A stretch of 64,000 bases of DNA from Eledone cirrhosa (GCA_964016885.1 OZ024764.1:17856001-17920000); one strand, 5' to 3'. Counted from the stretch's first letter, positions 36,601-61,767 are shown. Notes: generated by a model not told the origin, from the sequence alone. A program made the numbers and translations.

Positions 36601-37774
36601 CAGACATGTGGTTAGAATGTCTGAGGAAAGAATCTCTGAATTGAAAGACCACAGTTCTGATACTACAGACATGTGGTTAGAATGTCTCAGGAAAGAATCT
36701 CTGAATTGAGAGATCACAGCTCTGATACTACAGACATGTGGTTAGAATGTCTCAGGAAAGAATCTCTGAAGGGTCGTGGGGACAGAGTCCTCAAACACTC
36801 TGTCCTGTCAGAATCAACCATCTCCAACTGATCCAGCTGGATCACCAAAGGAGAGACCAGCAAAATTCATGATTGTTATCCAACCATCTAGCTTAGGTTT
36901 TACACCTAGGTCCCCTGTCAGTTGCTTTTACCTGTAAAATCTGTTCAGCAATTCTTTCTTGAATCATTCTAACCACATACCCATAGTACCAGAGCTGGTA
37001 AGTTGACATTATCAAGCCATCGTTTTGGCTGCCGGCCTCTGCTTTTCTTACCAGCCAACCTTCCTTCCAGGAATATATAATACCTTTTGATCACCAACAG
37101 CAGAGTTTAAAGAGCAAAGGTCAAGTCCAGTCCATAGGTTGACATTATCAAGCCATAGTTTTGGCTGCCGCCCTCTGCTTCTCTTACCAGCCAACCTTCC
37201 TTCCAGGCATAACCTACTCACACCACAAGTTGATCTTTTTATATGACCGTATAGTTTGAGTACTCTTGACTTGATAATTGATGTAATTGGTCTAAGTTTG
37301 GTAATGTTGGGCAGCTCACTGATACAGGGCCTTACTAATATCTAAACCCTTTATATTTGCAGGTCTAAAAGGCATTCAAAGGCCCCTGACGAGGGCTATT
37401 GGGATTGCAGTGTGTGTACCTACCGGAACTCACCAGAGGCTTACAAATGCGAAATGTGTGACGTACGCAAAGGTACTTCAACAAGGTAAGTTGTAGTAGT
37501 AGTAGTAGTAGTGGTAGTGGTTGTTGTGGTGGTAGTGGTGGTGGTGATGATGATGGTGGTAGTGGTGGTGGTGGTTGTTGTAATGGTGGTGGTGGTGATG
37601 ATGGTGGTTGTTGTGGGGGTGGTTGTTGTAATGGTGGTGATGGTGGGGGTGGTGGTGGTGGTGGTGATGATGGTTGTTCTGGTAATGGTGGTGATGGTGT
37701 TTGTTGTAGTGGTGTGTGTATGTGTATACTTTGACATATATATATATGTGTGTGTGTATATATGTACATATATA

Positions 37775-37805
<31 letters not shown>

Positions 37806-61229: not shown

Positions 61230-61268
<39 letters not shown>

Positions 61269-61767
61269 TCATCATCATTTCATTTTACGTCCACTTTTCC
61301 CTGCTTGCAAGGGTGGGACGGGAACTGATTCTGGCTTGATTTCTACAGCTGGATGCCCTTCCTAACACCAACCTCATTTACAGTGAGTGCTGGGTGCTTT
61401 TTTGCCGTGGCACCTCCACGACCACTTTGCAGTGGAATGATAGGGACCCCAGTCCCTATCATCTCATTTCTACAGCTGAGTAAACTGAAGCAATGTGAAA
61501 TAAAGTGTCTTGCTCAAGGAAACAACATATCGCCTGGTCTGAGAATTGAACCCACAATCTTTCGATTGCAAGGCCAATGATCTAACCACTAAGCCATGTA
61601 CCTCCATATTATATCTATTATATATGCATCTCTCTGTGCAGGAAACCCCGTCTGAATACACACGCTGCCCACCAAAACTCTCAGCAGTTTGCTCCACCAG
61701 CCAAGAAAGAGAAAAGTCAGATGAGAAAGGAGAAACACACTAACAATTCTACAAAGAGGGCCAACAG
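32709..61767 (+). CDS. YAF2: RYBP/YAF2-family gene (YY1-associated factor 2-like), 3'-partial; join(32709-32734,37363-37485,[53176-53259,56286-56381,59003-59047,60338-60424,61004-61090],61642-61767,...)
   Basis: Spliced translation [50 protein letters not shown]...[24 protein letters not shown] resembles the recalled YAF2/RYBP N-terminus ([34 protein letters not shown]). All introns are GT-AG, phase 2. The C-terminal RING1B-binding exon is not in the window. Confidence 0.92.
35592..36770. repeat. 65-bp minisatellite, about 18 copies (YAF2 intron 1)
   Basis: Unit tagaatgtctcaggaaagaatctctgaattgagagatcacagctctgatactacagacatgtggt. Confidence 0.96.
37363..37485 (+). CDS. YAF2: YAF2/RYBP RanBP2/NZF zinc-finger exon
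   Basis: Branch-like TACTAAT near 37333, acceptor tttgcag|, W-x-C-x2-C-x3-N-x6-C-x2-C motif, donor AG|GTAAGT; 123 nt. Confidence 0.96.
38471..38810 (+). mobile_element. tRNA-derived CORE-like SINE family 1
   Basis: A box TGGCTTAGTGG, B box GAGTTCAATTC, CORE-like CCTTGAGCAAGACACTT...CAGTTTACTCAGCTGTAGAAATG, RTE-like tail and (GAT)n. Confidence 0.85.
38866..38975 (+). ncRNA. type I hammerhead motif with extended stem II
   Basis: cccg-CTGATGA-agccgca...tgcggca-GAAA-ctcgag-TC-cggg. Confidence 0.78.
39105..39450 (-). mobile_element. RTE 3' UTR fragment
   Basis: Reverse-complement similarity to 57480-57790. Confidence 0.65.
39734..40076. mobile_element. PLE-like palindrome with a hammerhead at 39924-39991 (+)
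   Basis: Inverted arms ending GAGTGCTC/GAGCACTC; CTGACGA at 39930, GAAA-cctttgg-TA at 39973-39985. Confidence 0.65.
40285..42369. repeat. 42-45 bp minisatellite (about 46 copies) derived from a piggyBac-like MITE end
   Basis: Unit gccggtttaaatactaaaggggtgagagaattctggccagataca; ends in TIR-like tttaaatgctaaagagtta. Confidence 0.93.
42605..42628 (+). CDS. candidate 24-nt phase-2 microexon (R-FHDNTIT-R)
   Basis: Long T-rich tract then tcag|, open in the YAF2 frame, weak donor AG|GTAGTA. Confidence 0.3.
44370..44426 (+). ncRNA. type I hammerhead motif (family B), well paired
   Basis: ttttat-CTGATGA-gagggtaccaaa-at-tttggtaccctt-GAAA-tatata-TA-ataaaa. Confidence 0.82.
44976..45797 (-). mobile_element. 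CR1-like LINE 3' end with an internal 61-bp tandem array (9 copies, 45178-45730)
   Basis: [44 protein letters not shown], then 3' UTR and (ATT)n tail. Confidence 0.82.
46785..47062 (-). repeat. three diverged units of about 100 bp with a SINE-like tail motif
   Basis: gagtacaagact.cccctggataggacaccagtccatc occurs 3 times. Confidence 0.6.
47094..47428 (+). mobile_element. SINE family 1 nested in a piggyBac-like MITE (MITE starts at 47068)
   Basis: Full-length copy; ATAT duplicated at both junctions of the MITE sequence ccATATccggcc. Confidence 0.85.
47615..47932 (-). mobile_element. RTE fragment with 20-bp tandem expansion
   Basis: [19 protein letters not shown]; unit ctttgtcatccttggtctcc about 12 times. 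Confidence 0.6.
49118..49822. repeat. CAC-rich low-complexity tract (similar tract at 60430-60850)
   Basis: Direct inspection. Confidence 0.9.
50565..50785 (-). mobile_element. tRNA-SINE with family-1-like head and a different tail (second copy at 58220-58438)
   Basis: Shared head GTGGCTGAGTGGT...GAGTTCGATTCC...CCTTGAGCAAGACAC with a distinct 3' half. Confidence 0.75.
50930..51135. mobile_element. piggyBac-like MITE, 206-bp unexpanded form
   Basis: TTAA|CCCTTTAGCATTTA ... TAAATGCTAAAGGG|TTAA. Confidence 0.85.
51237..51945. mobile_element. piggyBac-like MITE with 72-bp array (about 8 copies)
   Basis: Same TIRs and TTAA flanks. Confidence 0.85.
52246..53105. repeat. compound (TA)n/(TG)n microsatellite; representative of many (605-1035, 1817-2352, 3646-4030, 4245-4940, 10590-12132, 24780-25245, 37735-38252, 42712-43238)
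   Basis: Direct inspection; source of the YIYI ORFs. Confidence 0.97.
53176..53259 (+). CDS. YAF2: extra YAF2 exon A ([28 protein letters not shown])
   Basis: (CT)n tract ...accag|, 84 nt, open, phase 2-2, donor AG|GTAATA. Confidence 0.65.
53832..56265. repeat. 42/44-bp minisatellite, about 57 copies
   Basis: Unit tattggctgagtattccacagaactagacaacatctctgtta. Confidence 0.97.
56286..56381 (+). CDS. YAF2: extra YAF2 exon B ([32 protein letters not shown])
   Basis: Acceptor tctcttatttttcag|, 96 nt, phase 2-2, donor CG|GTAAGG. Confidence 0.75.
57109..57790 (+). mobile_element. RTE LINE 3' end
   Basis: ELREKLEI...[12 protein letters not shown]...[11 protein letters not shown]...DRDLWR* plus 3' UTR and (GAT)n. 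Confidence 0.88.
57790..58095 (-). mobile_element. RTE-type LINE 3' end with two C2H2 fingers
   Basis: [21 protein letters not shown] and [22 protein letters not shown], short tail ending (CAT)n, truncated at a TA tract. Confidence 0.65.
58530..58863 (+). mobile_element. SINE family 1
   Basis: Near-identical to the copies at 38471 and 47094. Confidence 0.87.
59003..59047 (+). CDS. YAF2: extra YAF2 exon C ([15 protein letters not shown])
   Basis: Acceptor ttttctttcctcaacag|, 45 nt, phase 2-2, donor AG|GTGAGG. Confidence 0.72.
59155..60205. repeat. 19-27 bp GA-rich minisatellite
   Basis: (ga)n-taggtgtggtcaagca units. Confidence 0.93.
60338..60424 (+). CDS. YAF2: extra YAF2 exon D ([29 protein letters not shown])
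   Basis: Acceptor (tgacctt)x3 tcag|, 87 nt, phase 2-2, donor AA|GTAAGT. Confidence 0.75.
61004..61090 (+). CDS. YAF2: extra YAF2 exon E ([29 protein letters not shown])
   Basis: Acceptor ctgtttcag|, 87 nt, phase 2-2, donor CC|GTATGT. Confidence 0.7.
61266..61605 (-). mobile_element. SINE family 1, antisense (5'-truncated antisense copy at 62794-63061)
   Basis: Reverse complement of 58530-58863. Confidence 0.87.
61642..61767 (+). CDS. YAF2: YAF2/RYBP conserved exon ([42 protein letters not shown])
   Basis: Acceptor tctctctgtgcag|, 126 nt, KPR...QQF.PP..KKEK pattern typical of the family, donor AG|GTAACT. Confidence 0.9.

Follow-up and report, generated by a model that had tools for sequence, protein, structure and literature searches.

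In coleoid cephalopods, the RYBP/YAF2 gene appears to have gained six exons directly after R53 (human RYBP numbering), and the surface with which its product reads H2AK119ub nucleosomes may well have been rebuilt, with a predicted helix encoded by one of the new exons, exon A, replacing the ancestral helix 57–70. The gene is on the plus strand of Eledone cirrhosa DNA and lies mostly inside the 64,000-nt stretch that was analysed, here called the window (Table 1). Exon Z aligns to residues 3–53 of human RYBP and encodes the NZF zinc finger of the RYBP/YAF2 family, with a score above the PF00641 cut-off of 27 bits, and the last coding exon encodes the C-terminal YAF2_RYBP motif (69.9–70.3 bits; PF17219 cut-off 22.4 bits). 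The intron that follows exon Z interrupts the codon for R53. The peptide encoded by the first exon matches the N-termini of P0125 and P0127 and the upstream loose ends of assembled run contigs. When the genome was searched with the family and with the full-length protein, a single RYBP/YAF2 locus was matched and no intact paralogue was found. The cuttlefish-type proteins P0002, P0003, P0122, P0124 and P0126 begin at an upstream in-frame ATG that adds 47 residues. As a stop is present in-frame upstream of the ATG in the window, this extension is not shared, and it may be untranslated.

Table 1. Coding exons of RYBP/YAF2 in Eledone cirrhosa, with positions counted from the first base of the window
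Feature	Position	Strand	Remarks
First coding exon, coding part	32709..32734	+	Start codon, MDDKRGSSR; phase-2 donor at 32735
Exon Z, RanBP2/NZF zinc finger ending RKGTSTR (human R47–R53)	37363..37485	+	PF00641, 42.6 bits
Microexon m, 24 nt, FHDNTITR, alternative cassette	42605..42628	+	AG/GT ends; cuttlefish match
Exon A, 84 nt	53176..53259	+	Present in all isoforms seen; first half is the insert's only predicted helix
Exon B, 96 nt, SP-rich	56286..56381	+	Absent from a minority of cuttlefish-type isoforms
Exon C, 45 nt	59003..59047	+	Present in all isoforms seen
Exon D, 87 nt	60338..60424	+	Present in all isoforms seen; KKRK formed with exon E
Exon E, 87 nt	61004..61090	+	Present in all isoforms seen; conserved 10-residue motif
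Exon F, ancestral KPR exon (human K54–R56 and helix 57–70 equivalent)	61642..61767	+	
Last coding exon, RING1-binding YAF2_RYBP motif and stop	L001:1500-1713, 737 bases beyond the window end		PF17219

An earlier note on this DNA had described five extra exons (133 aa) between the finger and KPR. All five (A–E; 84, 96, 45, 87 and 87 nt) were recovered, at the same coordinates, when the interval between Z and F was scanned for every symmetric, stop-free AG..GT segment, and recomputation agreed that each is flanked by AG and GT, is phase 2-2 and is a multiple of 3, that the finger exon ends at 37485 and the KPR exon starts at 61642, and that a KKRK motif is formed at the D/E junction. The described composition was also borne out (S 16%, T 11%, K 11%, P 8%; 7 SP/TP sites). 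The set was nonetheless incomplete, as a sixth exon, the microexon m, had been missed, and the whole insert is 141 aa. Some members of the cuttlefish-type protein clusters have eight extra residues directly after GTSTR, and these led to m, which matches the cuttlefish microexon at seven of eight residues. With m included, none of the 64 exon combinations contains a stop. Exons A–D ranked 1–4 among 1161 candidate symmetric exons on the plus strand, with scores of at least 9.17 on a crude splice score made for this analysis, and none of the 1479 candidates on the minus strand reached a score of 9. These exons are thus not chance segments. Exon E ranked only 33rd of 1161 by splice score and was confirmed through homology.

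The closest relatives of the finger, among the best 120 of 562 relatives, are two long run-assembled proteins. The clusters of both include Sepia pharaonis RYBP (CAE1253801.1 and CAE1253803.1), and all six insert exons are also found in the cuttlefish proteins. Comparison with the cuttlefish-type protein P0127 revealed identities of 7/8 (m), 23/28 (A), 20/32 (B), 11/15 (C), 17/29 (D) and 25/29 (E) residues, or 103/141 for the insert as a whole, which is comparable to the 32/42 of the ancestral exon F. The exons, which the earlier note had proposed to check in other cephalopods, are therefore conserved. As the same six are present in cuttlefish, they are older than the split between octopuses and decapodiforms, which the available part of PMC9068888 places at ~275 Mya. 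In octopus-like contigs, six of the first 32 nt of A depart from the window sequence, all of them synonymously (read by eye from 30-letter loose ends), and m differs at 6/24 nt with one residue changed (also by eye). That the differences in A and m are mostly synonymous points to selection on the protein. The species of the window is octopod-like, as P0005 has exon E and F variants in common with the window and its N-terminus matches Octopus bimaculoides P0125. P0005 itself, an octopus-like model that connects a donor inside Z with an acceptor inside E, was not used further and is probably an artefact of gene prediction.

Among the 120 relatives listed, 71 matched both the loop and the C-terminal patterns and were treated as full length, and in 62 of these the finger runs directly into K54. 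The remaining nine are the two coleoid proteins, a protein with three extra residues, a Mya model that lacks the segment, and five vertebrate YAF2 isoforms with in-frame inserts of 16–42 aa at the R53/K54 junction. The direct passage from finger to KPR that had been taken as the vertebrate arrangement is thus the usual one, but it does not hold for those five isoforms. None of the gastropod or bivalve relatives viewed from the list has the insert. Searches with the insert alone retained 2 of 46 candidates and, among 1.84 billion representatives, a single match, none of them outside the cuttlefish-type clusters; an Atlas search gave no usable match and a Pfam search found no family. The proposal of a lineage-specific innovation is accordingly upheld for coleoids (cuttlefish and octopus-like), with the exact node not fixed by a list of relatives that includes no Nautilus and no full-length Octopus protein. 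Two possible sources of the exons were tried and rejected. When exon A was compared with the ancestral KPR-helix exon as a potential duplicate, 891–978 of 1000 shuffles scored as high, and when the coleoid exons were compared with the vertebrate YAF2 cassette exons, 134–883 of 1000 did so. As the vertebrate YAF2 inserts are unrelated in sequence, the junction has likely acquired exons at least twice, and it is likely to be a recurrent spot for exon gain.

Alignment to human RYBP, a subunit of variant PRC1 (PDB 8PP6, 9DBY), placed the insertion point between R53 and K54. The human and coleoid proteins have the same NZF with RKGTSTR, the same KPR and the same RING1-binding motif, in the same order. 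The coleoid proteins differ in having 101–141 additional residues at R53/K54, the range of insert lengths across the isoforms seen, and in the equivalent of helix 57–70, which is displaced into exon F, one residue shorter and degenerate. In the available part of PMC11257959, cryo-EM shows residues 47–58 of human RYBP crossing the H2A acidic patch, with R53 as a clear anchor and R47 and R56 less well defined; binding to H2Aub nucleosomes is three- to fourfold weaker in an R47/R53/R56 triple mutant, which is also severely compromised in array ubiquitination. The part of 10.64898/2026.02.20.706939 that was available describes impaired activity in S51E, T52E and R53A/E mutants, and a contact of helix 57–70 with the I36 patch of ubiquitin, and finds that removing the helix has a modest effect.

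In the 62 direct relatives, R47–K54 is invariant (R53–K54 by the way the rows were selected), P55 is present in 61, R56 in 56 (R or K in 60) and L61 in 52. In coleoids, position 56 is occupied by G when Z is spliced to A and by D when Z is spliced to m, and the L61 position is lost from exon F. The contiguous R47-R53-K54-P55-R56 loop followed by helix 57–70, a mechanistic feature taken from the structures and not part of the family's domain definition, was therefore not found in any coleoid isoform seen: its residues exist but are split by the insert. S51, T52 and R53 are kept in every coleoid isoform, and KPRLN in exon F is unchanged between octopod and cuttlefish, which fits its continued use beside the finger or another role. 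Variation in linker length, which the earlier note had made central, does not capture this. The distance from R53 to the RING1-binding strands is 186–200 aa in Mytilus, against 198, but the Mytilus linker follows the KPR-helix module, whereas the coleoid insert cuts the nucleosome-binding loop itself. The long linker in Mytilus (P0033 and P0034) is made of repeated K/E/Q-rich units after an intact KPR-helix module and is an independent expansion.

An AlphaFold2 run on a 53-row alignment, of which five rows cover exon A, gave a confident finger and a confident RING1-binding hairpin. The insert was predicted to be disordered except for one helix, at residues 50–66 of P0129 in exon A, at modest confidence (pLDDT about 65–70). 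The best window for helix propensity was at the human-equivalent positions 57–70 when m is skipped. We propose that the finger and its main anchor, S51-T52-R53, would have stayed in place while the ancestral R56 and helix 57–70 were moved 101–141 residues away, and that the predicted helix of exon A would take their place. Optional inclusion of m would shift that helix by eight residues. Exon A may contact ubiquitin or the nucleosome, and inclusion of m could then alter the affinity of the reader and hence the spreading of H2Aub by variant PRC1. The disordered B–E tract might contribute added phosphorylation and nuclear-import motifs and a reach toward neighbouring nucleosomes. As m ends in T-x-T-R, like GTSTR, it is tempting to speculate that it supplies a second anchor. 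The helix of exon A is predicted with modest confidence from a shallow alignment, and a helix at this place would not have to bind ubiquitin. Exon A has no sequence likeness to the ancestral helix. A complex prediction for the finger, exon A and ubiquitin scored 0.26, the mark being 0.34, and is given no weight in either direction.

It is possible, if somewhat unlikely, that the reader works as before via R53 and that the insert is a tolerated disordered extension with new short motifs that regulate stability, location or partners. The candidate motifs would be proline-directed phosphosites in B, the import-like KKRK signal at D/E, a W-containing motif in E and an amphipathic helix in A for another partner. 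Retention of S51, T52 and R53 in every isoform, the predicted disorder of all of the insert but A, the presence of conserved blocks far from the finger (such as E) and the tolerance of a long linker in Mytilus are all consistent with this. In addition, R56 density is weak and the effect of helix deletion is modest in the human studies (PMC11257959 and 10.64898/2026.02.20.706939, as far as their available parts go), so the change may matter little. However, the near-invariance of P55 (61/62) and R56 (56/62) in the direct relatives makes their removal from the finger unlikely to be neutral, and m, which is conserved and alternative in both lineages, directly follows R53.

The two cuttlefish-type clusters contain 10 members, two of them fragments, and the eight full-length proteins are six Logan-only proteins, which stand for 52 contigs, and two named gene models. 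Exons A, C, D and E are present in all eight. The Logan contigs comprise 35 m+B+, 15 m−B+, one m+B− and one m−B− (contig counts, not inclusion levels), and the gene models are m+B+ and m+B−. Four further contigs, one per run from 4 of the 24 runs listed, come from four other, octopus-like organisms and are <90% identical to the window; the runs are presumed to be RNA. At each splice site of Z these contigs part from the window, continuing upstream into exon 1 (in one case into an adapter-like end) and downstream into A (3/4) or into m and then A (1/4). All 13 listed differences in their exon Z are at third codon positions. Microexon m is included in 36/52 cuttlefish-type contigs and 1/4 octopus-like run contigs, and is therefore alternative in both lineages, in the octopus-like one across different organisms with one contig each. 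Skipping of B was seen in cuttlefish-type records only (2/52 contigs). The insert is mostly constitutive, with two cassettes, m and B, and four isoforms.

Exclusive use of the junction from 37485 to 61642, the outcome the earlier note had held against its exons, did not occur: this direct Z–F junction was found in none of the four run contigs and none of the eight full-length cluster members, with the proviso that contigs drop rare isoforms. We consider it distinctly unlikely that the ancestral direct isoform persists as the true reader, whether made in small amounts or only in certain tissues, with the long isoforms as damped or decoy forms, as the vertebrate YAF2 cassette isoforms may likewise be. 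KPRLN is identical in octopod and cuttlefish, vertebrate YAF2 produces both direct and inserted forms, and assembled contigs hide rare forms, all of which would suit a surviving direct form. Yet such a form, with its identical finger, would top the list of relatives and none is among the matches listed, and the helix residues past KPR have decayed in coleoids. It is highly improbable that all five exons are independent cassettes yielding up to 32 isoforms with linkers of different lengths, as had been suggested, because, while every combination is in frame and stop-free and some records skip B, none of the eight proteins lacks A, C, D or E, only m and B are both included and skipped, and the symmetry of the exons is no sign of alternative splicing, being common to the constitutive exons Z (123 nt) and F (126 nt), which are likewise phase 2-2 and multiples of 3, and forced for any exon gained singly in a phase-2 intron.

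We regard as rather unlikely the further-reaching proposal that coleoids dropped altogether the contiguous H2AK119ub reader found across animals, that a newborn exon replaces its helix, and that m is a tissue-regulated, possibly neural, Polycomb read–write switch paralleling the vertebrate YAF2 cassettes. Neural microexons of the SRRM4/eMIC programme are 3–27 nt, frame-preserving and alternative, have a UGC near the 3′ splice site and are included preferentially in neural tissue. At 24 nt, m agrees with this type in size, frame and alternative use, and resembles it further in being conserved and in lying beside an interaction surface. The 20 intron bases that precede m contain no UGC (TGC), and no Rbfox (TGCATG) or UGC motifs were found near m or exons A–D.

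The inserts in vertebrate YAF2 isoforms are at exactly the same R53/K54 junction as in coleoids. The source names of inserted isoforms are mouse X1 (203 aa), Peromyscus X3, Callorhinchus X2, Amblyraja X3, Narcine X4 and Salminus X2 (records P0104, P0087, P0108, P0119, P0097 and P0052), and shark and ray YAF2 includes forms with 14, 28 and 14+28 aa inserts. Many mammalian YAF2 models end in alternative exons at this junction. The vertebrate inserts are short and unlike the coleoid exons in sequence, and they coexist with a direct form, whereas none was seen in coleoids. They would also split the acidic-patch loop. In vertebrate Pax6(5a), which offers a parallel, a small insert within a binding domain works as a toggle. 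Of the precedents seen, the closest is the exon gain in cephalopod Pax-6, whose splice variants, in the available part of PMC3942700, involve coleoid-gained exons in a single-copy conserved regulator, as in RYBP/YAF2. Pax-6 differs in being a transcription factor and not a chromatin reader, and in having two added exons compared with six, and sequence similarity between the two sets of exons would not be expected.

The long proteins are already in GenBank under the two Sepia pharaonis RYBP accessions above. No published description of the insert was found in titles and abstract openings, a search that left subscription papers largely uncovered, and RYBP and YAF2 are absent from the main text of an exon-orthology preprint (10.64898/2026.09.05.749416). 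The R47–R56 loop and helix are nearly invariant across animals, and recent work has shown that they drive the feedback by which H2AK119ub spreads. With the only gene copy found cut in the reader loop by conserved, partly optional exons, coleoids provide a natural experiment on which contacts the read–write mechanism needs, and the insert is a candidate for a change in Polycomb control that is specific to coleoids. A further suggestion is that vertebrate YAF2 isoforms with inserts alter the same surface. Judging from the sequences compared here, coleoids likely read H2AK119ub with a rebuilt surface that is tunable by splicing.

Exon C starts with KENP (window 59003-59016), which is kept in cuttlefish and which we take to resemble a KEN-box degron. 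Ten conserved residues in exon E (61041-61070), set in a region that is otherwise disordered, resemble a short linear binding motif. A 361-codon open stretch on the minus strand upstream of the gene (12816-13898) contains a zf-RVT domain and is likely a fragment of a LINE retrotransposon; a shorter LINE-like stretch (57103-57402) had no Pfam match. Long minisatellite arrays occupy the introns at 40284-42365 (45-bp units), 45178-45730 (61-bp) and 53831-56262 (42-bp), with further arrays at 51245-51808 (72-bp) and 59155-60198 (26-bp). The array of 42-bp units stops ~23 bases short of exon B.
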